Source of the DNA: a phage
DNA length: 54,480 bases
Assembly: GCA_018865545.1 (NCBI GenBank)
Contig: GCA_018865545.1_3633.2
Reading direction: 5' to 3' (one strand)
The position numbers and the translations under genes were made by a program. Below, in pieces: positions 117-12,821 of this stretch. The stretch's first letter is position 1, and every line of letters begins with the position of its first letter. The notes below the pieces were generated by a model. The model ran no database searches, was not told the DNA's origin, and saw only the letters and a list, made by a program, of their open reading frames with translations.

Positions 117-434
117 ATGGCCTACGATGAAAATTCTATCCGTGTGCTGTCACCTGAGGATATCAAACAACGATTTGACTGGGTACGCATCGGGGATTTG
201 GTTCACGAATATAACTTACCTGTGGATTGGGTCAGACGTGGTTTTGAAGCGTGCTGGAGGTTAGACATCGATCCTGATTATTTTATCAACAAGTACATCC
301 TCAAGCAGGATGTTGATCCTGTACCTGATTTTGAGGCTGTTTTTAAGGAGATTGTTATGGAGTCTCGATTCAAGGATCAGGTATGCACTCGGCAGTCTCA
401 AAAACGCACCTACGAATCAGATTTGCAAATGTAG
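117..434 (+). CDS. hypothetical early protein
   Basis: ORF track 96..434; start moved to ATG117 preceded by GGAGGAG RBS; no recognisable motif. Confidence 0.5.
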   Translation: MAYDENSIRVLSPEDIKQRFDWVRIGDLVHEYNLPVDWVRRGFEACWRLDIDPDYFINKYILKQDVDPVPDFEAVFKEIVMESRFKDQVCTRQSQKRTYESDLQM

Positions 435-513
435 CCTACGGATAGGTAAAAACATCAACGAAAATCGATTCTCCGCTGGATCTACAGAGTAAATTTTCAA
501 TTTTCGGAGAAAA

Positions 514-888
514 ATGATGAAACGTACTATGCCAGACAAAGAGCGCGAAATTGCCCTCCAGTTAGCAAGAGAAAAAAGAGAGCAACAAAAGCGAGAATGG
601 ACTGCGCTGGCAGAAGCGGGAAAAATACGCCAACATTTCGCTGACGCTAATCACTGGACAAGGCTTCGTAGCAAGTATAGGATTTCGTCTCCGTACAAAT
701 TAGCTCCCGCAGAAAGTGAGCATGGAATGAAAATTCTTAGACGAACGATCAGACTGACCGGAGGATTCGAGTGGTTCAATGAGTCTTTCGGTATGGACAT
801 CAAGCAGTTTGTCAGAATGAACCGTACGTGGCCTGCATACGCCATTCAGGGGATCATCCTTGAAGAGTGGGATGATTATCAGAATTGA
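514..888 (+). CDS. hypothetical early protein (basic N-terminus)
   Basis: ORF track; GGAGA RBS before ATG; no motif recognised. Confidence 0.55.
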   Translation: MMKRTMPDKEREIALQLAREKREQQKREWTALAEAGKIRQHFADANHWTRLRSKYRISSPYKLAPAESEHGMKILRRTIRLTGGFEWFNESFGMDIKQFVRMNRTWPAYAIQGIILEEWDDYQN

Positions 889-981
889 TTTTTGTTGTAT
901 TTCTGGTAGCCAACTGGTATGTTTATTACAGGGAGTGATAAACACCCCTGTGTTACTTGTTTTATACAGGAGAGTTGATAT

Positions 982-1605
982 ATGTCTTGGCCTTTTTTGA
1001 TTTATCTTATTGATGTTCTTAGTACGGATGGGAAGTATGATGGCTGGGGATTCTTGTTGTTTCTGTGTGTTATTGTATACATGCTGATGCGTCTTCTTCC
1101 AAAGATCCTCGAAGAACCTAAGCTGGATATCTATCCAGGACAAAATCTTGTTTTAGCACAAGATTGGTCACGATTTAAAGCCGGAGATGTTCTTGTTGTG
1201 AAGGATACTGCGGGTGGTGATGTTCTTCTTCGCCACGGGGAGGAATCCCTTGGTTCTTGGGTGAGCAAGAGCATTTTACGAAAAGTGTGCAAACTTGATG
1301 AAAAACAAGAATATATCCCACAGCAAGATGCGATGGAAACACCGCGAAAGTTAACTGTTATTGCTATGGTTGTCTGTGTAATAGGTATTCTATATGCCAA
1401 CTTCATGCCGCAGAAAGAGACTTCTTACAAGATGCTTGCTGCGTATGTAGGTCAAAACATTGTAGAATCTCCAAGGACTCAACAACTTGCAGACAGCACA
1501 ATCAAGTATCTTGATGCCCAAATCAAGAAGTACACTCAAGAATTGGGTGACTCCTCAGAAGTGGCGAGTAAGGAGTCTAAGCCTGGTGAGAAGGTGAAAG
1601 AGTGA
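982..1605 (+). CDS. hypothetical membrane protein
   Basis: ORF track; AGGAGAG RBS; two hydrophobic segments (LIYLIDVL..FLLFLCVIVYML and VIAMVVCVIGILYANF). Confidence 0.55.
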   Translation: MSWPFLIYLIDVLSTDGKYDGWGFLLFLCVIVYMLMRLLPKILEEPKLDIYPGQNLVLAQDWSRFKAGDVLVVKDTAGGDVLLRHGEESLGSWVSKSILRKVCKLDEKQEYIPQQDAMETPRKLTVIAMVVCVIGILYANFMPQKETSYKMLAAYVGQNIVESPRTQQLADSTIKYLDAQIKKYTQELGDSSEVASKESKPGEKVKE

Positions 1606-1967
1606 TGGGAAAGCCATTTGAAACAAAACGCATAGCGTTGGACTTTGATGATACTTTCACGCTAGAGCCTGAGAGATGGTCACAATTTGTTGCTCTATTT
1701 GCAGCAAAGGATTCAGGTTGGTGTGTTAAATTTGTTACTTATCGCTTCGATTCAGATGATAACTCTGATATCCAGTTTTGGGCTGAAAAACTAGGTATCG
1801 AAATAATTTATTGCAATGGTATCCAGAAAGCACAAGTTTGTGCAGAACTTGGTTGGATCCCAGATGTGTGGATAGACGATTTTCCTGTTCTCATTCCTGT
1901 GAAACAACAACTACAGGGTATGCTTTTAGGAATAGAAAATAACGAAGAAAAACATAATGCTAAGTAG
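1605..1967 (+). CDS. small HAD-like phosphatase (putative)
   Basis: ATG overlaps upstream stop (TGATG); motif IALDFDDTFT matches HAD motif I DxDxT; WIDDF resembles motif IV. Confidence 0.45.
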   Translation: MGKPFETKRIALDFDDTFTLEPERWSQFVALFAAKDSGWCVKFVTYRFDSDDNSDIQFWAEKLGIEIIYCNGIQKAQVCAELGWIPDVWIDDFPVLIPVKQQLQGMLLGIENNEEKHNAK

Positions 1968-2204
1968 TTTAAGGGGGAGTGTTGAGAAGCATTGCGTATT
2001 ACAAATTCAAATGTTGGGAGAAACTCTATGATTTGAGCTACCTTATTTTTGGGAATCTCCCTGTCACTGAAGACATTAAACACAAAATGTATCTTGCATA
2101 CATGAAATACCGTCTCCACGAAAGAAAGAGTGGTTGATGAGAATGTTATGATGCCCTGTAGATACTCTCTACAGGGCTTGAATGCTTAATCACAGGACTT
2201 ACCA

Positions 2205-3029
2205 ATGACAAGTATTTTACACACGACAGGTATTTTACCACACTATCAGAAGGACTATTCTTTCCCTGATTTATCTGGGGATATGTTGCAAATATACGAC
2301 AAAGTGCAAGGCGAAGTGTCGGAGCTACAGTTTAGTTCAGACCCTGATGATGAGCAAGAGTTTGATAAACAGATTTGTCGTGTAGAAAACGAGCTTATAG
2401 AGCTACAATCATTAGCCAAATCAACAGATATCGAAGACTTAAGGCGATACGTAGAGAATCTTGAAAACTTAGTGTTCGGGCTTTCGCAAGCTATTATAAA
2501 CATTGGCGAAATTGCTAAAGTTGCGTCTGACAAGTTGCCAGACAACACAGAAGATATTGAAGAAGCGTTGCAGAATATCTGCTATGAAGGAAGCTCTGCT
2601 CTCGGTTGTGAATGTAGCTTAGGCACTGCCCTCGAAGAACGTGGGTGGAGCCTAGCCCAAAAAACTTTTGTTTATCTTGTTATTGGTGGTGAGTTCCCAC
2701 GACTCTTACAACTTAATGCCCTTTTTGGAAACAGTCAGAGCGATAATATTGCATTAGGTATTGATGGTTGGTTCTGCTTAAGAGGTAAAGAATTAACATT
2801 TTGTCGTGGCGATGATGTGTTAATTCTCAATGCTTCTAAACCTGGTGTTGGAATAACAGTAAGACTTAATGGTAAGTCCACTAATTTCCACACCACAGAA
2901 TTGACAGATATTTTTATGGACATATTCGATCCTACAGAAGACGAAATTCTTATGTATGAAATGACCAGTGGAAAAAGGTATGATATTTTGTTGTGGAGAA
3001 ATATTTTCGGTAAGAAGAAAAGTTTATAG
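2205..3029 (+). CDS. hypothetical protein
   Basis: 274-aa ORF, weak RBS; no motif recognised. Confidence 0.45.
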   Translation: MTSILHTTGILPHYQKDYSFPDLSGDMLQIYDKVQGEVSELQFSSDPDDEQEFDKQICRVENELIELQSLAKSTDIEDLRRYVENLENLVFGLSQAIINIGEIAKVASDKLPDNTEDIEEALQNICYEGSSALGCECSLGTALEERGWSLAQKTFVYLVIGGEFPRLLQLNALFGNSQSDNIALGIDGWFCLRGKELTFCRGDDVLILNASKPGVGITVRLNGKSTNFHTTELTDIFMDIFDPTEDEILMYEMTSGKRYDILLWRNIFGKKKSL

Positions 3030-3285
3030 TATGATATTTTATCGCTGATATTTGTTTTCCCTGTGATATTTTTGTCACAGGGAAAGTTTCAACAACAGAT
3101 ATTTTCTTGATACTTTAAAACTCTACCAGAATTTAAAATTCTGTAAATTTAGAAAACTATTACTTATAAGCGTTTCGACACAATTTTGTTATGAAAGCCT
3201 TGTTTTTATATAAAAACCTGTTTTAGCATGAGTGGTAGGATCACACTCCATACTACCTTTATTCCTACAGATGAGCACCTCCATG

Positions 3286-3500
3286 TCCGAAAACTCGGTT
3301 CTCGATCGAAAATTCATTTTCCAGATCGTATTTGCTCCTTACGGAGAAAATTTTTTAGGGCTACAAATTTCAGTTCTCGATCAGTTTTTCGATTTCAAAA
3401 TCGTATTTGTTTTTTCTTGCGAAAAATTTCGCACGCTCAGTTCTCGATCGAGTTTTCAAAATCGAAATCGTATTTGCTCTATAGCGCGAAAAAATTTTTA
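3286..3500. repeat. three tandem ~68-bp direct repeats (iteron-like), core GTTCTCGATCG...AAATCGTATTTG
   Basis: Direct inspection: units starting near 3286, 3361 and 3428 share GTTCTCGATC(G/A), TTTTC, AAATCGTATTTG and GCGAAAAAATTT blocks. Confidence 0.6.
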
Positions 3501-3881
3501 TGGGTATCATAATTCTATCACACACTTAAACGCAAAGCAACATAAAAATTTTTGTTGAATGATAATCATTCTCATTTGCAGAATGACAGGTAGGATCGGT
3601 GTCTTATCCTCCCCCGTTGACCATCGTCGCCGTAGTTTGAAGTTTATAGCCGTTCTCGGCTTATCTCTTTGTTAGATATAGATTAACATAATTGATAAAG
3701 AAAGCAAGCGTTAATTGTAATCTTTACGTTTCTTTACAAATTTATTTTTGACGAGTTACCGGCGATCGACCTTCCAACCAGCGCCCTGGTATGTTAGCCC
3801 CGCCTTTACGCCGTGGGGATGGCGTTTCCTCTTCTGTATGTGAAACATTATAAGCCCGACCCCCGGGCTTGTCAAACATTT

Positions 3882-4148
3882 TTATTGTTTATTTTCTTGC
3901 CAGGTTAGGACACCTAGCCAGAAATGGCAATCACCTTTCGCCCATTGTGGTATATTGCTTTCTTTCCCACCTTCCCGCGCCCAGGAATAACCGCCCGTGT
4001 AACTTTGCAATTGATAACTATCCTCGACCTTATAATCTGACAGGCTGAGAACTGTTTCTACCTTTAAGCCCGTTGCGCTCGCTACCTGGTGGATAGTTCC
4101 CCCTTGCCAGCCTAACGCGTGCATAAGGTGCAATGTGGTCGTGGTCAT
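3882..4148 (-). CDS. hypothetical protein (isolated minus-strand gene)
   Basis: 88-aa ORF; AGGA RBS 9 nt upstream; possible divergent promoter TTGCCT-16-TATAGA; hairpin GCCCGGGGGTCGGGC downstream. Confidence 0.4.
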   Translation of the reverse strand: MTTTTLHLMHALGWQGGTIHQVASATGLKVETVLSLSDYKVEDSYQLQSYTGGYSWAREGGKESNIPQWAKGDCHFWLGVLTWQENKQ

Positions 4149-4224
4149 TTTTTCTATTCCTCTGTTAGTTGGCTAGTTGTTAAAATTATATCTATAACCA
4201 GCCAGGTTAGCAAGGCAAATAAAA

Positions 4225-4280
4225 GAGAAAAATTTTTTAAAAATAGTATTGACAGCTAGGTAGTATAGATCTACTATGTA
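4225..4280 (+). promoter_or_regulatory. sigma70-like promoter TTGACA-17-TACTAT with AT-rich upstream element (repeat copy 1)
   Basis: TTGACA at 4249-4254, TACTAT at 4272-4277; identical copy at 9289-9317. Confidence 0.55.
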
Positions 4281-4332
4281 CACATCAAGGCGATACACCG
4301 CCACCAACCAACCTAAAAAGGGGTGAATTAAT

Positions 4333-4956
4333 ATGAAAACCATCGTTAACGCTGAGAATGTATCTTTCGATAAGTTGAGCGACGCACAAAAAGAAAAAGC
4401 CATTGATCTTATTCGTGAGCGTGAAAGAGAAAGTAATAATGATTTCTTTGCTGATAGTGTCATTGAAGACTATAAGAATGACATTTTGCCAGAGTACGGG
4501 ATCGATGACGCGGTTATCTATTGGTCAGGATTCTGGTCGCAAGGCGACGGCGCATCAATCAGCACTGACCGCGTGGATATTGAAAAATTTTTAAGAAAAG
4601 TTAAATCTTTAACAAAATTCAGAGGGATCCGCAAACTATTTGATCTCGGTGAATATAGTCCGTTATATGCAAGCATTGAGCGGGATAATTACAGCCGCTA
4701 CCACCATGAAAATACTGTTTCCGGTTACGTTGACACTATGTATTGCGGCGATTTAACGGCAAAGCAGGAAGATTTGACCAATCAGCTTGAAAACTTGTTA
4801 ACTGAAACGATCCGCGATCTGTCTTGTAAACTTTACAGAGATTTAGAATCAGCCTACGATGACCAGTTTACAGATGAAGCCATCACAGAATCAATCGAAG
4901 CCAATGATTATCGTTTTGATATTGATGAAGATGGAAAAGTTTACGCTATCGCTTAA
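4333..4956 (+). CDS. hypothetical acidic early protein
   Basis: ORF track; AAAGGGG RBS; shares its first 8 codons (MKTIVNAE) with the gene at 9373. Confidence 0.6.
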   Translation: MKTIVNAENVSFDKLSDAQKEKAIDLIRERERESNNDFFADSVIEDYKNDILPEYGIDDAVIYWSGFWSQGDGASISTDRVDIEKFLRKVKSLTKFRGIRKLFDLGEYSPLYASIERDNYSRYHHENTVSGYVDTMYCGDLTAKQEDLTNQLENLLTETIRDLSCKLYRDLESAYDDQFTDEAITESIEANDYRFDIDEDGKVYAIA

Positions 4957-5046
4957 AAGTACTTGCATTCAGTTTTAAAATAGTACTATACTACTACAAC
5001 AACAGGACGGGGAACCGCTCCCCGTCACATTCAGGAGATCATCAAA

Positions 5047-5265
5047 ATGGCTAATATCCGCACATTGTTAAAAAATGCAAAGCAAGTTTTATTTTCTGAC
5101 GACGAATATTTTAATTGCAATATCAAAGGCGTTCGGAACATCGAGGATGTAAAGGATTTATTTGGAATAAAAGGTAATGTATATCGTAAAGGGTTACACG
5201 GCAATCATCTTGAATATAAGTTAGCTGATAGTGATTATAATTTTACTTTGACAATTATTTCATAA
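5047..5265 (+). CDS. hypothetical protein
   Basis: ORF track; AGGAGA RBS; preceded by GC hairpin 5006-5028. Confidence 0.5.
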   Translation: MANIRTLLKNAKQVLFSDDEYFNCNIKGVRNIEDVKDLFGIKGNVYRKGLHGNHLEYKLADSDYNFTLTIIS

Positions 5266-5330
5266 AACCACTTGCAAAGTTATATAGTCCTGTTATACTA
5301 CCAACATTGACAAACGAGAGGTAAATAAAA

Positions 5331-5687
5331 ATGGCAATCCAGGCAATCATGTTAGAACTTACAGACTTCCGTAATACTGTAAAAAATTTAACCAAAAAAC
5401 AGGTTGATAATATTATCAACGGATACCGTAGCAAGATTAAAGATCTTCCGCTTAAACGCGATCAACATGCGGCTAATATGATGCTTGACGCTATGATCAA
5501 AAAGATGATTCAGTGCGATCTTACTCTGGCTTATGAATACGCTGGCGATCTCTTTGTAACGTATAATAAGCCAGTGCCAGGCATGTGCACCACGGAAGAA
5601 TTGCACGCCCTGAATCTAAAACAAGATGCATGGGATAATATGCGCCGCGTTATGGTGTGGGCAGAAAGCGGTAAAATTTATCAATAA
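5331..5687 (+). CDS. hypothetical protein
   Basis: ORF track; GAGAGG RBS; upstream TTGCAA-16-TATACT promoter-like sequence. Confidence 0.55.
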   Translation: MAIQAIMLELTDFRNTVKNLTKKQVDNIINGYRSKIKDLPLKRDQHAANMMLDAMIKKMIQCDLTLAYEYAGDLFVTYNKPVPGMCTTEELHALNLKQDAWDNMRRVMVWAESGKIYQ

Positions 5688-5689
5688 AG

Positions 5690-5735
5690 ATAGTTGTCTT
5701 TTAGTTATGCCGTGGTAGAATACACGGCATAGATA
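5690..5735 (+). promoter_or_regulatory. promoter TTGTCT-16-TAGAAT with palindrome ATGCCGTG/CACGGCAT flanking the -10
   Basis: Direct inspection; near-identical element at 10280-10325. Confidence 0.45.
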
Positions 5736-5763
5736 AGAGAAACTACTTATCAGAGTTTAAAAG

Positions 5764-5982
5764 ATGAAAAATATTACGGGTAAAACCGAGCTATTAAAGG
5801 CGCTTTCTGTCGGTGAGTCAGCTTTATGGGTATGCGAAAAAGATCGCCTACCGTCGCGTGAGATGGCCTTGTTTAAGGCTTTATCTTTGAAGCTGAAAAT
5901 TAAATTATCCCAAAAATTAGCGGTTGTTGCCGCACCTGGGGAAACTGCTTTCAGTGTCGTAATGGTTAAAAGGTTGGAGTAG
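5764..5982 (+). CDS. hypothetical protein
   Basis: 72-aa ORF downstream of the palindromic promoter; weak RBS. Confidence 0.4.
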   Translation: MKNITGKTELLKALSVGESALWVCEKDRLPSREMALFKALSLKLKIKLSQKLAVVAAPGETAFSVVMVKRLE

Positions 5983-6067
5983 AAAAAATTAAAAATTATA
6001 TTGACAAGCAAAACAGCAAAAATTAAACTTACACACAGTTAAACAAACAATATTAACGAGGTAAATC

Positions 6068-6439
6068 ATGAAACAGTTAACCGCTTCCCAAAAAGCAATG
6101 ATCCGTGAGTATGTTTTAAACTCTCTTTCTTTCGATATTGAATCGGGTAGCGAGCAAGATCAGATCAAAGAATTAAAAAACCGATTTGAATCTGAATACT
6201 GGTACGATAGCAACAAGAAACGCTATCAAAATGATAAAGTACAAGGCCTCAAAAATTGGTTGCAAGGTTTGCCGAGTGGTGTTAATATCGATTTCACTTA
6301 TTACGATATTGAGCAACGCCTTAAAGATTTTGGGGTCATCACCGAGACGACCAGAGAAAACACTATTGAAAAATATATCTCTGAGTGGTGGGATCTGGTA
6401 GCGCCGTTTTATGCTGGGCTAATCGTCAACTTAAAATAA
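6068..6439 (+). CDS. hypothetical protein
   Basis: ORF track; GAGG RBS; upstream TTGACA-17-TAAACT. Confidence 0.55.
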   Translation: MKQLTASQKAMIREYVLNSLSFDIESGSEQDQIKELKNRFESEYWYDSNKKRYQNDKVQGLKNWLQGLPSGVNIDFTYYDIEQRLKDFGVITETTRENTIEKYISEWWDLVAPFYAGLIVNLK

Positions 6440-6516
6440 TTATTGCAAACTATCTAAAACTGGTTTAAATTAAAGGGAGTGAGTTTATCACTCCCAACAT
6501 GAAAGAGGTTAATCAA

Positions 6517-6828
6517 ATGAATAGTTATTTTGCTACTCGTTCACTTGCACGCATTGCAGCGAAAGAAACAGGCGGCAAAGTTTTAGATAATGGTAAAGAT
6601 GCGCCTATCGGTAAACGTTGGCAGGTTATCCCTGGCTATGTTGTTGAAGCCGTCCAGGATACAGCAAAACAACGCGCCGAGATGGAGAATAAACCAGTAG
6701 TTACCTTGTCCATTGCTAAGCGTAGCAATGTAGCGAATCAAGCCCGTAAGGCGCTTTATTACGCCATCAATTACGCAAAAAATAATAAAATTGTTCCAGT
6801 TTATCATAAGCGTTCATTTAAGAAATAA
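6517..6828 (+). CDS. hypothetical protein
   Basis: ORF track 6499..6828; start moved to ATG6517 behind AAGAGG RBS; hairpin 6473-6493 upstream. Confidence 0.5.
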   Translation: MNSYFATRSLARIAAKETGGKVLDNGKDAPIGKRWQVIPGYVVEAVQDTAKQRAEMENKPVVTLSIAKRSNVANQARKALYYAINYAKNNKIVPVYHKRSFKK

Positions 6829-6897
6829 TTTTTAATTAGATAAAAAGCGCCCTAAGAAATGGGCGCTAAACAAAAACACTTAAAGAGGTAAATTATT

Positions 6898-7248
6898 ATG
6901 GCCAGCATTGTAGAAGTTTTCAAAAAAGCCGTAGAAAATAAAAACGCTGAATTGTCTTTAGTATCTCTGGATTTTACTGATGCTTACGGTAACACTTATT
7001 TTGTTTACGAGCTTGCTTTTACTTGTCCTGAATTGAAAACATGGGAAACATTGCATAAATCTCGCGATCTGCAATATGGATATGGCGATCACGTTTTAAC
7101 TGTTGCAATGAAAGACCTTGCAATCATTACCGGGATGGGATCGGACGCTGTATATATTACCCGTTGGGCACACGATAACGATTTAAAAATCAGTGTCAAC
7201 AAGCGCACCAATTGCCGCAAAAAAGATCTAAAACAGTTCATCGCTTAA
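6898..7248 (+). CDS. hypothetical protein
   Basis: ORF track; AAGAGGT RBS; hairpin AGCGCCC..GGGCGCT upstream. Confidence 0.55.
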
Positions 7249-7264
7249 TCATCCTGGTAGCTGT

Positions 7265-7615
7265 ATGATTCAGTTTTATATAATCATCGCGGCGCTTGCA
7301 ATTTATTTAGGATTGCATAAAAAAATATTTAGATTGATTCTCTGGTTTTACTACGAATACAGGATCAGAATGGTTTATCACTATATCGAATACTCTTTTC
7401 ACGGTGAGAGATACCACACCAGAAGATCCGGCCCATTAAATGATCTTGAGGGCAACGGTTTAATCTGTGAGGTTAAAAAGCGTGGCGGTAAAATTCTTTA
7501 CCACAAAGAGGGTACTTTTGATTATATTGATGACGTGATTAATTTTAGGCAGCAAGCCGTTGCAGATCACGCCAGCAAAATAATCAACGGCAGCTATAAA
7601 CGCAAAGCGGGGTAA
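7265..7615 (+). CDS. hypothetical protein with N-terminal transmembrane segment
   Basis: ORF track; hydrophobic N-terminus IIIAALAIYLGL; weak RBS. Confidence 0.4.
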   Translation: MIQFYIIIAALAIYLGLHKKIFRLILWFYYEYRIRMVYHYIEYSFHGERYHTRRSGPLNDLEGNGLICEVKKRGGKILYHKEGTFDYIDDVINFRQQAVADHASKIINGSYKRKAG

Positions 7616-7616
7616 T

Positions 7617-7799
7617 ATGCGGAATTTTGAAAAAATTGTTAAGGCTAATCGTCTGGAATATGGGGAAACAGACGAAAAACGGGAACGGGTAGGCAAACGT
7701 CACAAACCTAAAAAGGTTCCGAAATTGTGGTGTCCTGATAAATACGATCACAAATTAAAACAGCGTATCGCTGAAAAACAGCGACTTAACGCAAGATAG
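7617..7799 (+). CDS. small basic protein
   Basis: ORF track; Lys/Arg-rich; followed by intrinsic terminator. Confidence 0.4.
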   Translation: MRNFEKIVKANRLEYGETDEKRERVGKRHKPKKVPKLWCPDKYDHKLKQRIAEKQRLNAR

Positions 7800-7804
7800 C
7801 AGAC

Positions 7805-7830
7805 AAGGCCGGATAGTTCCGGCCTTTTTA
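7805..7830 (+). terminator. rho-independent terminator
   Basis: Hairpin AAGGCCGGA-TAGT-TCCGGCCTT followed by TTTTT. Confidence 0.6.
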
Positions 7831-8016
7831 GTGCCTGGCAGCGCCTGTAACGATTAAAAAGGCCAACGGTGGCGTGATGCACCACAAAATAAAATAGCTC
7901 GCCAGAGAGCTTTTTAGAGGCCTTAAAATCGATCCGAAAAATATTGATAAAAAATGCTTGCAATGCTTTCCAGATACTGATAGTGTTACTTCAACAAACA
8001 AAACGAGGTAACGGCA

Positions 8017-8154
8017 ATGATCGAAGTTCTTAAAAATCCTATTTTGTGTGGTATGGTTGTTTCTGTACTACTCCCGATCTCGCTGTTAGTCGTTAGCGAA
8101 ATAGATGATTTTCTTTTCAATAAAAGACTTGCCAACAAGTCAAAAACAAATTAA
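8017..8154 (+). CDS. small hydrophobic peptide (45 aa)
   Basis: Not in ORF track (under 60 aa); ACGAGGT RBS 7 nt before ATG8017; hydrophobic core ILCGMVVSVLLPISLLVV. Confidence 0.3.
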   Translation: MIEVLKNPILCGMVVSVLLPISLLVVSEIDDFLFNKRLANKSKTN

Positions 8155-8191
8155 TATAGTATCAGCATACTAACTAGCGAGGTGATTTAAT

Positions 8192-8410
8192 ATGTTTGGT
8201 TTTATTGTTCTATCTTGTTCTCTTTCTGTCACTGCTGCAAAGGTAGAATGTAACTACACTGTAAAAGAGACTTTTAATGATGAAAAGTCTTGCAATGCAT
8301 ACGAAAATAATTATAAACTAGGAGACGGGGAGCAGTTCGGGATCTGTGATGAATTAAAAGACGGGATCAAGAAAGGTGATAAGCGCCCGATCCTAGTCCT
8401 GAAAAAATAA
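8192..8410 (+). CDS. small secreted protein (putative signal peptide)
   Basis: ORF track; GCGAGGTG RBS; N-terminus MFGFIVLSCSLSVTAA resembles a signal peptide. Confidence 0.5.
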   Translation: MFGFIVLSCSLSVTAAKVECNYTVKETFNDEKSCNAYENNYKLGDGEQFGICDELKDGIKKGDKRPILVLKK

Positions 8411-8450
8411 TTTTCTAATCATGTTGATCAATTTTTAAGAGGTGAATAAA

Positions 8451-8738
8451 ATGTTTGAAGTTTTCGCGGGTATGTGTTTTTATACAGCTTTGGCAGTTCG
8501 CCAGTGTGATGATTATATCGTTGAATCATACGACGATCAGTTAACTTGCGAAATAGTCGCTAATGACTACGGCAAAAAAGATCGCTGGGTTAATCCGGCT
8601 TGTATACCATCCCCAGAGGTAGAAGCCATGCCAGAAGGGGAAGAGGTGACGGATCCAGTTGTAGCGGTATCCTCCTTTTTCGTTGACAACCTGGACGCCC
8701 AAGAATTGATCAACATGTATGTAAAAAATCAAAAATAA
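8451..8738 (+). CDS. hypothetical protein
   Basis: ORF track 8442..8738; start moved to ATG8451 behind AAGAGGTG RBS. Confidence 0.5.
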   Translation: MFEVFAGMCFYTALAVRQCDDYIVESYDDQLTCEIVANDYGKKDRWVNPACIPSPEVEAMPEGEEVTDPVVAVSSFFVDNLDAQELINMYVKNQK

Positions 8739-8780
8739 CGCTTGACGTTGATTTGTGCCACCTTATAATAGGTGGCATAG
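8738..8780 (+). promoter_or_regulatory. promoter TTGACG-16-TATAAT with palindrome TGCCACC/GGTGGCA flanking the -10
   Basis: Direct inspection of 8742-8777. Confidence 0.45.
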
Positions 8781-8828
8781 GTAAGCGAAAGCGGATCTAA
8801 ATCTTAAACAAGTTAAGAGAGGTAAATC

Positions 8829-9149
8829 ATGGAACAAGCTAATAAATTTTTCTTCCTGGCTGGGATCGTGGATAATGTGAAATGTGATTTCAAGCGTGAA
8901 AATGATAAGACGTTACTCACTTTCTGCGATATGCTTGATCATGAGAATGCCGACACGTTACGAATTGAGATCCGCACGATAACCAATATCGACAACGCAA
9001 GCCGTTTAATTTATAAAACTCATTCTATAGCCTACAGCCTAGAAACATCGACAAGCTGCCTGCAACAAGGTGAGAGCTTGCCTATTCTAAATAGTGCCGA
9101 TGTATTTGGCGCGGTTGTTGCCATTGTGAACGATGTTTTTTCCCGCTGA
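8829..9149 (+). CDS. hypothetical protein
   Basis: ORF track; AGAGAGGT RBS. Confidence 0.5.
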   Translation: MEQANKFFFLAGIVDNVKCDFKRENDKTLLTFCDMLDHENADTLRIEIRTITNIDNASRLIYKTHSIAYSLETSTSCLQQGESLPILNSADVFGAVVAIVNDVFSR

Positions 9150-9264
9150 TTGGTGTTAATCTTATGTTAGAAAATATCGTTTTTTGGTGTGGTGTCGTTC
9201 TTGCTGTTATGGTTGGCCTTCTGGCGACGATGGAGAATATTGTGATCTCAAATAACCTGGCACG

Positions 9265-9320
9265 GTAAAAAATTTTTTAAAAATAGTATTGACAGCTAGG
9301 TAGTATAGATCTACTATGTA
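9265..9320 (+). promoter_or_regulatory. sigma70-like promoter TTGACA-17-TACTAT (repeat copy 2)
   Basis: Part of the 130-bp perfect direct repeat 9268-9397 = 4228-4357. Confidence 0.55.
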
Positions 9321-9372
9321 CACATCAAGGCGATACACCGCCACCAACCAACCTAAAAAGGGGTGAATTAAT

Positions 9373-9660
9373 ATGAAAACCATCGTTAACGCTGAGATAA
9401 AAGAGGGTAACAAAATAAATATTCTAACAGTTTATGGCGAGACTGTGGAGTCAGTATCGGAGGCTATTAATAAGATTACACAAAAAATTGCAATTGAAAT
9501 ATTAGCCAGTGATCCGGCTCGTTTGTTTAATGATGTGTACCATGATGACGTATCTTTGCCGTGCTTCACTTTCAAAACAGAAAGCACGTTTGACAAAGTA
9601 AAAAAGTGTATACCTGTTCACGTCTATCTGTGCCAGGAAGATCCAGAAGATTGGATCTAA
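9373..9660 (+). CDS. hypothetical protein
   Basis: ORF track; same RBS and first 8 codons as the gene at 4333, then diverges. Confidence 0.55.
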   Translation: MKTIVNAEIKEGNKINILTVYGETVESVSEAINKITQKIAIEILASDPARLFNDVYHDDVSLPCFTFKTESTFDKVKKCIPVHVYLCQEDPEDWI

Positions 9661-9695
9661 CGGTTGACAATACGCAATGATTGCTTATAATAACC
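9660..9695 (+). promoter_or_regulatory. promoter TTGACA-16-TATAAT
   Basis: Consensus hexamers at 9664-9669 and 9686-9691. Confidence 0.5.
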
Positions 9696-9738
9696 CGCAT
9701 CAGACGGTAAGTTTTCCGCACCTAACAAAAGGCTAATA

Positions 9739-10008
9739 ATGATGAACATCTCAAAAACTACTTTCAACTTCGCTAAAAAGCGTGGGATTGAGCTTGAGCT
9801 AATCGCAGCAGATGATCGCTTGGTCCTGGCTTTTTATGAAGCTAAAAACGAATGTGAGTGGATGTTCTCTTATAATGTTAACTATGATTGCCTAACATGG
9901 CGCGGCAATATCTATCTTCCAAACGAAGTAAAAGAGGAATTACCAGCCACGATCACGACTGAGAAAAAATTACGTGAAGTTATTGACTTCATCTCTAAAA
10001 GTATCTAA
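9739..10008 (+). CDS. hypothetical protein
   Basis: ORF track; AAAGG RBS; downstream of consensus promoter. Confidence 0.5.
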   Translation: MMNISKTTFNFAKKRGIELELIAADDRLVLAFYEAKNECEWMFSYNVNYDCLTWRGNIYLPNEVKEELPATITTEKKLREVIDFISKSI

Positions 10009-10054
10009 GATTACAGGGAAAGGGGCAAAAGCCCCCTACCGCAGAAGGTATAAA

Positions 10055-10279
10055 ATGGATAAATTAACAAAGATTGAACATGAAGTTATGGATCTTGCAA
10101 GGGCTAATAGGCCATTTGACAAGATTTTCTCTAAGGAGAATAAAGAGATCTTGAAAGGTCTAACGCAAGGTCAAAAAGACGGCTTGCGCCGCTTATATCG
10201 TGAGGCGTATGACTATTTTCGCTGGTGGGAAATAGAAGAGGCTAACGCGAAAATAGAAGGCCTAGAAAATTTAGTATAA
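10055..10279 (+). CDS. hypothetical protein
   Basis: ORF track 9974..10279; start moved to ATG10055 behind GAAGGT RBS; GC hairpin 10017-10040 upstream. Confidence 0.45.
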   Translation: MDKLTKIEHEVMDLARANRPFDKIFSKENKEILKGLTQGQKDGLRRLYREAYDYFRWWEIEEANAKIEGLENLV

Positions 10280-10325
10280 AAGTAGTTGACTTTTACTTAT
10301 GCCGTGATAGAATGCACGGCATAGA
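10280..10325 (+). promoter_or_regulatory. promoter TTGACT-16-TAGAAT with palindrome GCCGTG/CACGGC flanking the -10
   Basis: Near-identical to the element at 5690-5735. Confidence 0.45.
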
Positions 10326-10374
10326 TAAGAGAGACGGCACAAGCCATTGATTAAACTTAAAGAGGTAAATTATC

Positions 10375-10776
10375 ATGAATACTTACAAAACTGTTTTTAA
10401 TTTCGACAACTTCAAAGCTATCTGTGACGATCAGATCGGTAAGTGCCGTAAAGAAAAAGGATTCTATAAGTCTTATAAATTGATTGCGGTTGTTGATGAA
10501 GAGATCACCGAAGTGGCAACGCTCAACCTGTACCACACCAACGCTACTAATTACGCTTGCCTGTGGATGCACTGGACCAATATTAAAGGTTGGGATCATG
10601 GCTATGTTGGCGGGAAAGCAAGCGGATACGGTTACGACAGGGAGGAGGCCGCGATCCATGTCGCAGCTAATAAGCTCGGTATTACTGGCAACTGGTTTAA
10701 AGGTGAACAATTGCTAGATGCGATGGCACGTCATTTTGATATGAAAGGCGCGAAGGTTATCTGCTGCAACGCGTGA
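10375..10776 (+). CDS. hypothetical protein
   Basis: ORF track; AAAGAGGT RBS. Confidence 0.55.
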   Translation: MNTYKTVFNFDNFKAICDDQIGKCRKEKGFYKSYKLIAVVDEEITEVATLNLYHTNATNYACLWMHWTNIKGWDHGYVGGKASGYGYDREEAAIHVAANKLGITGNWFKGEQLLDAMARHFDMKGAKVICCNA

Positions 10777-10823
10777 TCACTCAATAGCGGGGAATATTCC
10801 CCGCTTATAGATAGGGCATAATC

Positions 10824-11282
10824 ATGATTTACGATCTTAAATATTACGACGAATTGAGCATTGCAGCACAATTAACCGCCCGTGTCAATATTATAGCAGA
10901 CCTGGAGAATCACCACAGAAAGCGCATAGTTCAGGCTGTCGCCAGTTTTAAAAATGATCCCCATAAAGTGATTAATGACACGGAGCACATTTCACGCCTC
11001 ATAAACGGCGCAAAGGCGCTTTATAGTGTACGTCATTACGGGGATGATTACCTTATAAAGTTTATTCGTGATAATCGTTTGATCTTTACCCCTGGAGGCA
11101 GCTATATAGCCTATAGCGACGGCTTTATGATGATTATTAAGGGTAAGGAATACATCCCCACGGCCTCACAACAAAAAGCATTGAGAGCGCTTTACATCGC
11201 CATTAATGAGCGTGGCCCGTCATATCATGATTGGCTATATAGAATGCACCACAAAATAAAATTTTTTATGATTCCCGCTTGA
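10824..11282 (+). CDS. hypothetical protein
   Basis: ORF track; preceded by hairpin GCGGGGAATATTCCCCGC. Confidence 0.5.
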   Translation: MIYDLKYYDELSIAAQLTARVNIIADLENHHRKRIVQAVASFKNDPHKVINDTEHISRLINGAKALYSVRHYGDDYLIKFIRDNRLIFTPGGSYIAYSDGFMMIIKGKEYIPTASQQKALRALYIAINERGPSYHDWLYRMHHKIKFFMIPA

Positions 11283-11360
11283 CACCCTCATAAAAACGCC
11301 TTATTATCTATCTCATAAGGCGGGGAGCGGTTCCCCGCCACACTTAAGAGGTAAATAATC

Positions 11361-11750
11361 ATGCGTAACCTGGTTCATGTTTCCAACGTTGAAAAATTCC
11401 AATCTTTACAGGCTATCGTAAACGATACAGCGCCTTTTATCGTTAAAGGCTTGATCGCAAGAATGCAACAGAAAAAACCTGAAATCTGGGCTAATTATTG
11501 CCTTGATAATGATGATCAGGCCGCCGCTTTCATGGTTAGCGAACTGCTGGGAAGTGTAGGGAACATGTTACCGGAAAACATCGCAGAAGAGATCACCTAT
11601 CGTTATAATATGGCGATAACTTATCAGGAGGTTGCGCAATTTAACCTGATGGATGACGACGAACAACAGGATCAGGAAATTTACTGGGAGTATGCCGACC
11701 GTCAGGCAGCTTTTGATGAACGGTTGGAGATGTACTATAACGAATGGTAA
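11361..11750 (+). CDS. hypothetical acidic protein
   Basis: ORF track; TAAGAGGT RBS; acidic C-terminus DDDEQQDQE. Confidence 0.55.
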   Translation: MRNLVHVSNVEKFQSLQAIVNDTAPFIVKGLIARMQQKKPEIWANYCLDNDDQAAAFMVSELLGSVGNMLPENIAEEITYRYNMAITYQEVAQFNLMDDDEQQDQEIYWEYADRQAAFDERLEMYYNEW

Positions 11751-11756
11751 TAAACA

Positions 11757-11787
11757 GGCCGCATATTAGCGGCCTTTAATTTTTTCT
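11757..11787 (+). terminator. rho-independent terminator
   Basis: Hairpin AGGCCGC-ATATTA-GCGGCCT followed by TTAATTTTTT. Confidence 0.6.
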
Positions 11788-11847
11788 ATTGACAATATTA
11801 CACTAACCTTTAAAATGTTCTCTATTAAGTATCTTTAAAGGTGTAAC

Positions 11848-12027
11848 ATGCTCCAATCAATCATTGATGTTCTATCAGTCGCTAACAACGTGATGAACGT
11901 AATTACAATGATTAAACTTGTTGCGTGGTTTGTTTCCGGGGATTATCGCTATATTAAATGGCGCAAGCCAACCATAAAAGACGTAGTGAAGATCTCATTT
12001 GAAGCAATGACAGAATATTATCTATAA
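11848..12027 (+). CDS. small hypothetical protein (59 aa)
   Basis: Not in ORF track; AAAGGTG RBS before ATG11848; upstream TTGACA promoter-like. Confidence 0.3.
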   Translation: MLQSIIDVLSVANNVMNVITMIKLVAWFVSGDYRYIKWRKPTIKDVVKISFEAMTEYYL

Positions 12028-12088
12028 CGATTATTTTTTGTTGACATCCAAAAGATTTTTCAATACCATTGATCACATAAGGGCGGCA

Positions 12089-12316
12089 ATGATGCTGCCC
12101 ACAACTGAAAGAGAAATCACCATGGCGCTTAAAAAACTAACAAGTAATACACGTTGGGATGAAATCGGCGGGGAAGTATACATTTTCGCCCGTAAACCAG
12201 GTGATCAAAAATGGTCAAAGGCTTTTACTTGCCACCCTGCAACCATAGACCTGATAAAAAGGGAAGGTTTACGCGAAGCAGTAGCAAGAAATTTGCTGAT
12301 TCCTTATAAAAAATAG
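12089..12316 (+). CDS. hypothetical protein
   Basis: ORF track 12038..12316; start moved to ATG12089 behind AAGGGCGG; upstream TTGACA-17-TACCAT. Confidence 0.45.
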   Translation: MMLPTTEREITMALKKLTSNTRWDEIGGEVYIFARKPGDQKWSKAFTCHPATIDLIKREGLREAVARNLLIPYKK

Positions 12317-12382
12317 TTTGAAATTAATTTCATTATTGATAAAATCTTATATAAAACTTTAACCTAAAAGGGGTAAATTAAT

Positions 12383-12583
12383 ATGAAACGTTTTACTTAT
12401 GGTGTGGTTGGCGGTTCTGTTTCAAACCGTTTTTACAATACCGAGCGTGGTGCTAAAAATGCAGCTACCCGTGAATATGGCAATAGTGCAAATTTACAAG
12501 TTGGCTACATTAGCAAAATTAGCGGTATGTTTATTCCGGTTGCTCAACGCGGCATGTATTGCATAAACTGGATGCCAATGTAA
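12383..12583 (+). CDS. hypothetical protein
   Basis: ORF track; AAAAGGGGT RBS. Confidence 0.5.
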   Translation: MKRFTYGVVGGSVSNRFYNTERGAKNAATREYGNSANLQVGYISKISGMFIPVAQRGMYCINWMPM

Positions 12584-12598
12584 AAAGGAGTAATAAAA

Positions 12599-12790
12599 AT
12601 GGATGTACCACAAGTTAGAAAGGTATTAGCAGCGTTACGCTATCACAATCATAGCAAGGTGAAGAATGATCCTGATTATGTTGATTCCAGCTTGGAGGAA
12701 GACACCTTGCAAGCTATAAGCCATATGCAGGAATTGCTTAAGCGTATGACAGAGAAGAACAGATCTGATTATATAGGTGAAGAGATTTAA
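12599..12790 (+). CDS. hypothetical protein
   Basis: ORF track; AAAGGAG RBS. Confidence 0.5.
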   Translation: MDVPQVRKVLAALRYHNHSKVKNDPDYVDSSLEEDTLQAISHMQELLKRMTEKNRSDYIGEEI

Positions 12791-12821
12791 TCTCTTACAA
12801 CCGCACAAAGTAAAATTGTAC

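Follow-up and report, generated by a model that had tools for sequence, protein, structure and literature searches.

The phage contig GCA_018865545.1_3633.2 (NCBI GenBank assembly GCA_018865545.1) carries two identical copies of a 130-nt promoter-leader-start cassette, approximately 5 kb apart, each of which ends inside the coding sequence of a different gene. The stretch of DNA that was analysed, hereafter the window, is 54,480 bp long and represents a whole phage contig within the draft short-read assembly of an E. coli isolate. Its nearest relatives, with an identity of ~92-93%, belong to the genus Avunavirus of the Vequintavirinae (Av-05, vB_EcoM_TH18, 18-1-2, 19-1-2 and 24-2-1). The cassette is located in a block of small plus-strand genes, mostly without an assigned function, that show sigma-70-type promoters preceded by AT-rich blocks; a promoter scan revealed many similar plus-strand promoters between positions 4000 and 12400, and G/C-rich stem-loops are often present in the neighbouring cassettes. 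The type of promoter and the layout of the genes suggest that this block would be expressed early.

Copy 1 (4228-4357, plus strand) and copy 2 (9268-9397, plus strand) form a direct repeat with an offset of 5040 nt and, in an exact alignment, are identical at 130 of 130 nt, as reported in the first-pass annotation of this DNA. The repeat cannot be explained by chance, given that the window contains the 29-nt promoter core exactly two times and 100 shuffles do not contain it at all. In copy 1, an AT-rich UP block (4228-4248) is followed by the -35 box TTGACA (4249-4254) and, after a spacer of 17 nt, by the -10 box TACTAT (4272-4277), both identified by the promoter scan. The leader, of ~50 nt, includes a weak 4-bp hairpin, GGCG/CGCC (4289-4302), and a CA-rich spacer that separates this hairpin from the Shine-Dalgarno (SD) sequence GGGGTG (4320-4325), which is located 7 nt before the ATG. 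The cassette ends with this ATG (4333), seven further codons (MKTIVNAE) and one additional base. The promoter, the leader, the ribosome-binding site (RBS) and the eight codons are present in both copies, and the two open reading frames (ORFs), at 4333-4956 (207 aa) and 9373-9660 (95 aa), differ from codon 9 on; in these respects, the initial description of the repeat holds in full. The cassette comprises a complete predicted promoter of the sigma-70 type, a leader, an RBS and a start codon, which supports this part of the initial interpretation. Apart from the hairpin, which has no U-tract, the 130-nt unit could form a 5-bp TAGTA/TACTA pairing across the -10 box; nevertheless, the predicted fold of the leader is not better than that of shuffled sequences (z -0.91), and a search of the leader against Rfam matched no known RNA family. 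In copy 2, the stop codon TAA at 9266-9268 merges directly into AAAAATTTTTTAAAAATAGTA, and the 25 nt before the -35 box are 88% A+T; copy 1 has the same AT block, but the neighbouring upstream gene is divergent. The segment located between the copies (4358-9267) comprises 4910 nt of unique sequence with ~14 small plus-strand ORFs.

The 207-aa gene (4333-4956, plus strand) belongs to phrog_5162 (PHROGs, E 7.8e-84), a family whose function is not known, and the cassette natively belongs to this gene, from which the eight codons shared by both genes derive. The 95-aa ORF (9373-9660, plus strand; ORF95) has a different history. In an early stage of the analysis it was taken as a protein without relatives, given that tblastn against phages and a word-indexed search of 5.8 billion proteins retrieved only ORF95 itself; this was overturned by an exhaustive HMMER search that detected eight small homologs of 81-84 aa (one of 89 aa), the best of them with 64% identity. 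These homologs begin with MNILT(V/I)Y and align with ORF95 only from residues 15-19 on. A comparison with the DNA of the closest homolog (TAACAAAATGAAC versus TAACAAAATAAAT in the window) revealed that codons 9-14 of ORF95 (ATA AAA GAG GGT AAC AAA, 9397-9414) match the SD and spacer of that homolog, that is, they translate a former SD sequence (AAGAGGG) and its spacer, and that codon 15 (9415-9417) is ATA, coding for Ile, where the homologs have ATG. Codons 16-95 correspond to the body of this family of 81-84-aa phage proteins. All this indicates that ORF95 is a chimera formed by eight codons copied from the 207-aa gene, six codons that were formerly part of a 5' untranslated region, an Ile in place of the initial Met, and the body of the family. 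Since the native ATG reads ATA, translation would have to start at the copied ATG, and the repeat would therefore supply translation initiation as well as transcription. In agreement with this composition, the AlphaFold model of ORF95, with a predicted local distance difference test (pLDDT) score of 87, shows a fold that starts at residue 16, and the first block of 10 residues averages a pLDDT of only 56; the 14-residue N-terminal extension is thus predicted to be unstructured. A fold search gave generic alpha/beta matches, with an uncharacterised 82-aa protein from Serratia phage BF as the sole convincing relative. Pfam gave no match for the 207-aa protein, ORF95 or their neighbours, and PHROGs only families without a known function. 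A search for the MKTIVNAE block before other genes did not reveal a recurrent capture; in viral contigs it was found only in Av-05.

To establish which copy is the original, the sites of both cassettes were compared with those of related phages. At site 1, a cassette was found in the orthologous place, before the same 207-aa gene, in Av-05, 18-1-2/TH18, GCA_003360955 and ERR13946601; copy 1 is 92-94% identical to those of Av-05 and 18-1-2/TH18, and differs from those of GCA_003360955 and ERR13946601 at few of the 130 positions, the nearest of these foreign cassettes being different at 2 of 130. At site 2 the situation is the opposite. The window is collinear with its relatives from 398 to 9294 and from 9722 to 12800, and in between, the 427 nt from 9295 to 9721 stand in place of 56 nt. 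The six other lineages in which site 2 was compared (L001, L002, L014, L015, L016 and L018, four of which, i.e., one NCBI assembly and three from Logan, were obtained through exact-protein look-ups) have a flank identity of 93-97% and carry there the 56-nt core and leader of a different promoter (P2, as opposed to P1 of the cassette), with breakpoints exactly at 9294|9722. Therefore, among the seven lineages compared, the 427-nt replacement is present only in the window.

The 27-mer AAAAATTTTTTAAAAATAGTATTGACA, which corresponds to the UP block and the -35 box, occurs exactly at site 2 of L014, L015, L016 and L018, and in L001 and L002 it is off by 1 indel or 2 nt. Since this block already existed at site 2 of the relatives, the 130 nt of identity can be divided into 27 nt of old identity (9268-9294, plus strand), where the left junction is likely homologous, and 103 nt that were newly copied (9295-9397, plus strand) and include the promoter spacer, the -10 box, the leader, the SD, the ATG, seven codons and one nucleotide; only these 103 of the 130 nt are newly duplicated, which refines the first description of the repeat. 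Both copies share a private allele, an A at 4280 and 9320, where the other four lineages with the site-1 cassette have a G. Had copy 2 existed since this phage separated from Av-05 and 18-1-2 (~6% divergence), the probability of finding zero differences in 130 nt would be ~4e-4. The private allele, the two differences with the nearest foreign cassette and this low probability show that copy 2 is recent and derived from site 1 of its own genome. In consequence, the comparison indicates that copy 2 is a lineage-specific derived copy and not an old paralog; this, together with the chimeric nature of ORF95 and its ATA codon, had been missed in the first-pass annotation.

The rest of the 427-nt replacement also points to an acquired module. 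Its 3' part (9661-9721, plus strand), missing at site 2 in all the relatives compared, contains a promoter with a perfect consensus, TTGACA-16-TATAAT (9664-9691, scan 12/12), that starts 4 nt past the stop codon of ORF95, and the 5' part of the leader of the next gene. The same layout, a stop codon, 3 nt, and TTGACA-16-TATAAT, was found 3' of the closest homolog of ORF95, encoded in L005, a metagenome contig of 567 bp, which indicates that the downstream promoter is part of the acquired module. Homology with the relatives restarts at 9722, in the leader motif CTAAC-AAAGG of the 89-aa gene (9739-10008, plus strand; phrog_6147), which in these phages is served directly by the site-2 promoter. 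The module has a GC content of 0.38 versus 0.39 for the region. Its unique 324 nt (9398-9721) had no match in the E. coli, plasmid or phage collections, and neither the junction nor the module was found elsewhere in viral contigs, complete E. coli genomes, plasmids or metagenome contigs; a single match in the GTDB genomes, in Cohnella, was judged to be due to chance. Regarding the origin of the cassette, P1-type -10 and leader sequences (TACTATGT-CACATCAAGGC) are found before various genes of distant phages: in L004, a 153-kb phage contig from IMG/VR, a homolog of the ORF95 family is natively located behind a P1-type promoter and leader (TTGACG-17-TACTATGTATCACATCAAGGC...), and the start of the P1-type -10/leader sequence also lies before a third, unrelated gene in another large phage. 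The presence of these sequences before unrelated genes indicates that the P1-type cassette is an old and portable family.

From these results, we propose that copy 2 arose by a recent intragenomic duplication that placed a regulatory cassette before an acquired accessory gene, a reading to which we assign a probability of about 75%. In a first step, a horizontally circulating module formed by an SD sequence, an 81-aa gene, a promoter and part of a leader would have been brought into site 2 by an exchange at regulatory motifs that are conserved, replacing the usual 56-nt promoter core and leader. In a second step, a tract of ~103 nt would have been copied from site 1 to the promoter located 5 kb downstream; the tract would begin in the 27-nt UP/-35 block common to both sites and stop, without homology, at codon 9 of the 207-aa gene, which places its end directly before the SD of the module. 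The left junction is probably homologous because the AT-rich 27-nt block was already present in both promoters, and the right one illegitimate because it joins codon 9 of the source gene to sequence directly before the target SD. A template switch or a patch similar to gene conversion would be the likely route, and site 1 may have served as the donor if the incoming module brought extra homeology through a P1-type cassette of its own. As a third point, the join happens to be in frame, so that the 95-aa protein would now start from the copied ATG. The change from ATG to ATA may have preceded the copying event, which would then have rescued the gene, or followed it, by drift or by removal of an internal start. 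As a consequence of the duplication, the 207-aa and the 95-aa genes should be expressed with the same timing and strength from the host sigma-70 RNA polymerase, and the two repeats could in principle delete the 4.9-kb block of ~14 genes or excise it as a circle.

The exchange proposed for site 2 is not an isolated case in this block. At site 2, the junctions lie at the -35 box and in the leader. Likewise, in comparison with Av-05, which does not have a gene found in the window and in 18-1-2, the segment 12049-12371 has its junctions just past a -35 box and at the SD/ATG, and 18-1-2 has an insertion of 442 nt that starts with its own promoter. L016 does not have the 152-aa gene, and in this case a CCCGCTT microhomology was found, with the right junction at the -35 box. 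In addition, a gene of ~92-104 aa, whose product starts with MKISLDSAIS..., occupies different promoter slots in L014 (~5017-5295) and L016 (~3033-3347), where it replaces window positions 12103-12302 and 11355-12079, respectively; the junctions of these swaps lie in the SD, the leader hairpin and the UP region. Overall, ~10 of the 12 junctions mapped are in intergenic DNA, which accounts for ~19% of the block, and, in descriptive terms, cassette-bounded shuffling appears to be general in this region. The first-pass annotation had proposed that the cassette can drive recombination between early-gene modules. This idea gains support from the location of the indel and swap junctions at promoter, leader and RBS motifs, and from the fact that the cassette itself seems to have been copied by recombination; nevertheless, recombination between the two copies was not observed. 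The deletions or shuffling between the copies that could be expected in related genomes did not appear in phages, E. coli genomes, plasmids, or viral and metagenome contigs, and both copies together are present only in the window. A block of ~29 nt that includes the RBS and start, AACCTAAAA(A)GGGGT(G/A)AATTAATATGAAA, is found at 4310-4338, 9350-9378 and 12361-12388; the last of these belongs to an unrelated gene at 12385 and coincides with the right junction of the Av-05 indel.

Several points weigh against this proposal. The ATA at codon 15 may result from an error of sequencing, or may still serve as a start codon of very low strength. The view that the short state of site 2 is ancestral is based on six lineages versus one and on the identity argument, and no syntenic outgroup was found beyond Avunavirus. 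A predecessor with the 81-aa gene at site 2 under its own promoter and ATG was not found, so that the insertion of the module, the change from ATG to ATA and the copying of the cassette may have followed another order. The clustering of junctions in intergenic DNA could equally reflect the selection of viable recombinants instead of recombination hot spots. Finally, the two assemblies of this region probably share their reads, and the arrangement is a singleton in every collection searched. An attempt to polarise site 2 with an outgroup of the 89-aa gene failed; this gene is promiscuous in T1-like, T4-like and phAPEC8-like phages, where it is found without synteny.

A bolder version of the proposal would add a selective value to these events, which would then not be accidental: an acquired gene devoid of its ATG would have been re-activated by the capture of the block formed by the promoter, leader, SD, ATG and eight codons, and rV5-like phages would use portable cassettes with a promoter, a translation start and the first codons as expression adaptors carried by recombination, which could also excise mini-circles with several genes, such as the 5-kb block, for horizontal transfer. 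We consider such an adaptive rescue doubtful.

A different possibility is that the duplication is old and that both copies have been kept identical by ongoing gene conversion; in this case, the long state with two copies would be ancestral, and the other lineages would have lost it by replacement. No outgroup polarises site 2, phage recombination is able to homogenise short repeats, and the site-1 and site-2 cassettes of the relatives are themselves old paralogs, with the UP/-35 block and two motifs, CACATSAAGG and CACYAAC, in common. In contrast, the six lineages, with 3-7% flank divergence, have the same 56-nt P2 state and the same breakpoints, and thus a single early replacement would be required, with the window as the only basal lineage to survive. 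Moreover, a pair of 81-nt promoter repeats present in this block (5663-5743 and 10255-10335, 79% identical) has not been homogenised: 77-80 of 81 positions agree between orthologs, versus 65-72 of 82 between paralogs, hence each site evolves independently. A general homogenisation of promoter repeats was rejected on these grounds, and since it is not the rule, the perfect identity of the 130 nt is the signature of one recent event. In addition, the repeat has its right end in non-homologous coding sequence, which is typical of a one-off illegitimate join and would not be expected from recurrent conversion. An old duplication is in our opinion unlikely.

It can also be considered that the whole 427-nt segment, with the P1-type cassette already fused, was imported from another phage by recombination through the UP/-35 block and the leader. 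The homolog of the ORF95 family located behind a P1-type -10/leader in the 153-kb IMG/VR contig makes a P1-like donor plausible. However, the copy includes eight codons of the resident 207-aa gene, which in viral contigs were otherwise found only in Av-05, and its identity with the resident copy, 130/130, extends to the private allele, while the nearest foreign cassette is off at two positions. Because of these characteristics, any donor would have to belong to essentially the same lineage, and there is little likelihood that an import from a foreign phage explains copy 2.

The arrangement could also be artificial. The first-pass annotation had pointed out that an assembly artefact would invalidate the repeat, and it is conceivable that the order A-R-B-R-C (where R is the repeat and B the segment between its copies) does not exist in one molecule but results from a mixed population, e.g., a deletion variant A-R-C together with a circular or tandem B-R, or from a chimeric join. 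In favour of this view, the source of the window is a draft short-read assembly, no second example of the arrangement was found, and a de Bruijn graph with one collapsed repeat is by itself compatible with A-R-C plus a B-R circle. Nevertheless, a second assembler agrees: the Logan k=31 assembly of run SRR14792941, which was probably made from the same reads and so is not independent sequencing, is 100% identical to the window and breaks at the repeat. Its contigs stop or begin exactly 30 nt inside the repeat, i.e., contig_352 (4970 bp) corresponds to window positions 4328-9297, and contig_122 (45 kb) begins at 9368. The length of contig_352 equals the 4910 unique nucleotides plus 2 x 30, which, with the ends 30 nt inside the repeat, is the pattern of a true repeat. 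This contig also passes unbranched from the end of a 34-aa ORF, through the 27-nt block, into the P1-specific GCT (9295-9297); this indicates that the reads connect segment B with the P1 core and that the sample does not contain the P2 core. Besides, the order A-B-C is the synteny of all the relatives, 130 nt would be an unusual k-mer length, and the sequence at 9398-9721, in spite of having no match in the E. coli, plasmid and phage collections, shows the promoter, SD and stop style and the GC content of its surroundings. An artefact is therefore regarded as highly unlikely. An autonomous mobile element (a unit similar to a miniature inverted-repeat transposable element, a homing unit or an attachment site of the integron type) with a dedicated enzyme for its movement would fit a perfect repeat with a variable gene cassette nearby, but this is extremely improbable, as the ends of the repeat show neither terminal inverted repeats nor a target-site duplication, only two copies exist in 54 kb and one per relative, one end lies within coding sequence, the neighbours have no match with recombinases, transposases or homing endonucleases (8 ORFs in Pfam, 6 in PHROGs), and Rfam gave no match.

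Once the intragenomic duplication is accepted as the preferred explanation, the cassette can be compared with known systems. The closest one is that of the promoter early stem-loop (PeSL) regulatory cassettes of T4-type phages, for which mini-circles and promoter and terminator activities were demonstrated experimentally, and a subclass with the stem-loop overlapping the -10 box was described; the AT-rich part of PeSLs was proposed as the crossover point (Arbiol et al. 2010, PMC2839356; Comeau et al. 2014, PMC4122927). PeSLs are located in the hyperplastic regions that separate the core modules of T4-type genomes, they have a stable stem-loop, often polyG/polyC, with the role of a terminator or attenuator, and their recombination with neighbouring cassettes gives mini-circles that can be packaged. 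Several features are shared. The cassettes of the window are located at intergenic sites within a block of small, mostly unknown, presumably early genes; an upstream stop codon is found in an AT-rich stretch (as is the case for copy 2), followed by -35 and -10 boxes close to the sigma-70 consensus, and the 3' end of the cassette has the SD GGGGTG, 7 nt and the ATG. A predicted stem-loop, with strong G/C stems in neighbouring cassettes, accompanies the promoter, and here it overlaps the -10 box or lies where the leader begins. Close relatives differ by indels and replacements whose junctions fall within the cassettes; the AT-rich crossover point proposed for PeSLs corresponds to the 27-nt UP/-35 block; and a module with its own promoter was apparently inserted without disturbing the neighbours. 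There are also clear differences. The phage belongs to the Vequintavirinae (rV5-like) and not to the T4-type Straboviridae, and no paper linking PeSLs with rV5-like phages was found in the literature searched. The 130-nt unit has a weak stem-loop of 4 bp that lacks a U-tract and has no evident role as a terminator, and the duplicated tract runs through the SD and eight codons into the coding sequence, which yields an in-frame chimeric protein. Furthermore, promoter activity and mini-circles are experimental facts for PeSLs, and predictions for the cassette described here. Given the assignment of the window to Vequintavirinae/Avunavirus, the cassette is best considered as one that works like a PeSL, and not as a member of the T4 element family.

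Morons, which are extra genes with their own promoter and terminator located between conserved genes of lambdoid and other tailed phages, provide a second comparison. Like a moron, ORF95 is an accessory gene, with no known function, that occurs in a single genome, is missing at site 2 of six lineages, and seems to have arrived with a promoter (9664-9691). In contrast with morons, it is located in the early block of a lytic phage, the promoter of the module lies downstream and serves the next gene, the module has no terminator, and its expression would depend on a copied resident promoter and start region. The third comparison is with integrons, where a captured gene cassette is expressed by its placement behind a resident promoter. 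By analogy, ORF95 would be a gene without working expression signals of its own that was placed under a resident promoter; unlike in integrons, however, there is no integrase, attC or attI, the promoter and start were copied to the gene instead of the gene being moved, and of the two junctions, one is homologous and the other illegitimate, neither being site-specific.

Taken as a whole, this is a new instance of the known reshuffling of accessory genes bounded by cassettes, and it does not involve a new mechanism. It provides a clean and datable snapshot of the rewiring of an accessory gene in the early region of a lytic phage, and extends to the Vequintavirinae a PeSL-style shuffling described for T4-type phages. 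It also suggests that a shared UP/-35 block of 27 nt suffices as the starting point for copying an entire expression cassette, and that an accidental in-frame join may give rise at once to a new chimeric protein and to a new pair of recombinogenic repeats. The Vequintavirinae find use in biocontrol and therapy, which gives practical relevance to the stability of a ~14-gene block of 5 kb located between perfect repeats. For annotators, identical N-termini in unrelated small phage proteins can be the mark of such fusions.

Other observations concern the leaders and promoters of this group of phages. The site-2 leader of the relatives (8917-8975 in L001, and also in L002, L014, L015, L016 and L018) has an 8-bp stem that is kept in 6 of 6 lineages, with one fully compensatory pair change (C-G to A-U) and two one-sided compatible changes; its conservation with a compensatory change indicates that the leader stem-loops of the cassettes are apparently under selection. 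In three plus-strand promoters (8742-8769, 5694-5721 and 10286-10313), the -10 hexamer lies in the loop of a perfect 8-bp inverted repeat; the sequence is GTGCCACC-TTATAATA-GGTGGCA in the first, and ATGCCGTG-(G/A)TAGAAT(A/G)-CACGGCAT in the other two, which lie in the pair of 81-nt repeats. These three promoters fit the PeSL subclass in which the stem-loop overlaps the -10 box. In L005, the contig with the closest homolog of ORF95, a 71-nt promoter-leader cassette is repeated at 273-343 and 497-567 (97% identity, 224 nt apart), preceding successive genes; the contig begins and ends within such cassettes, which suggests that at least three copies exist and that the assembly was broken there. 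In L004, the P1-type leader reads CGCCTCTTAACAA just past the hairpin (2975-2995), which we take to resemble the boxA antitermination motif of rrn and lambda (GCTCTTTAACAA); the leader of the window matches this motif poorly.

In the ORF-poor stretch of the window at ~3030-3880, three tandem-like units of 63 nt (3294-3498) were detected, 67-75% identical and with a spacing of 75 and 67 nt. They are non-coding and lie upstream of divergent promoters, and the distant L004 has 31-nt tandem repeats in a comparable position (1558-1667); these units may represent an origin or iteron-like region, or a regulatory region. A mosaic patch was found at 5080-5250, inside a 72-aa gene (5047-5265): it shares 64-72% identity with either relative, against ~90% between the two relatives in the same place, and has a GC content of 0.30 versus 0.39 in the region, whereas the first ~15 and the last ~12 codons of the gene are conserved. 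This pattern indicates that the patch is an allelic replacement with its junctions inside the ORF. In several independent short-read assemblies of related phages, the contig of this segment has a similar length (54,480 bp in the window, and 54,435, 53,997, 54,117 and 54,752 bp, with a sixth of 56,817 bp), which suggests that larger repeats located at fixed places of these genomes, of ~120-134 kb, break the assemblies. Lastly, Enterococcus phage heks matches coliphage sequence at ~90% DNA identity, and Campylobacter phages at ~60% protein identity; these records are probably mislabelled or contaminated database entries.

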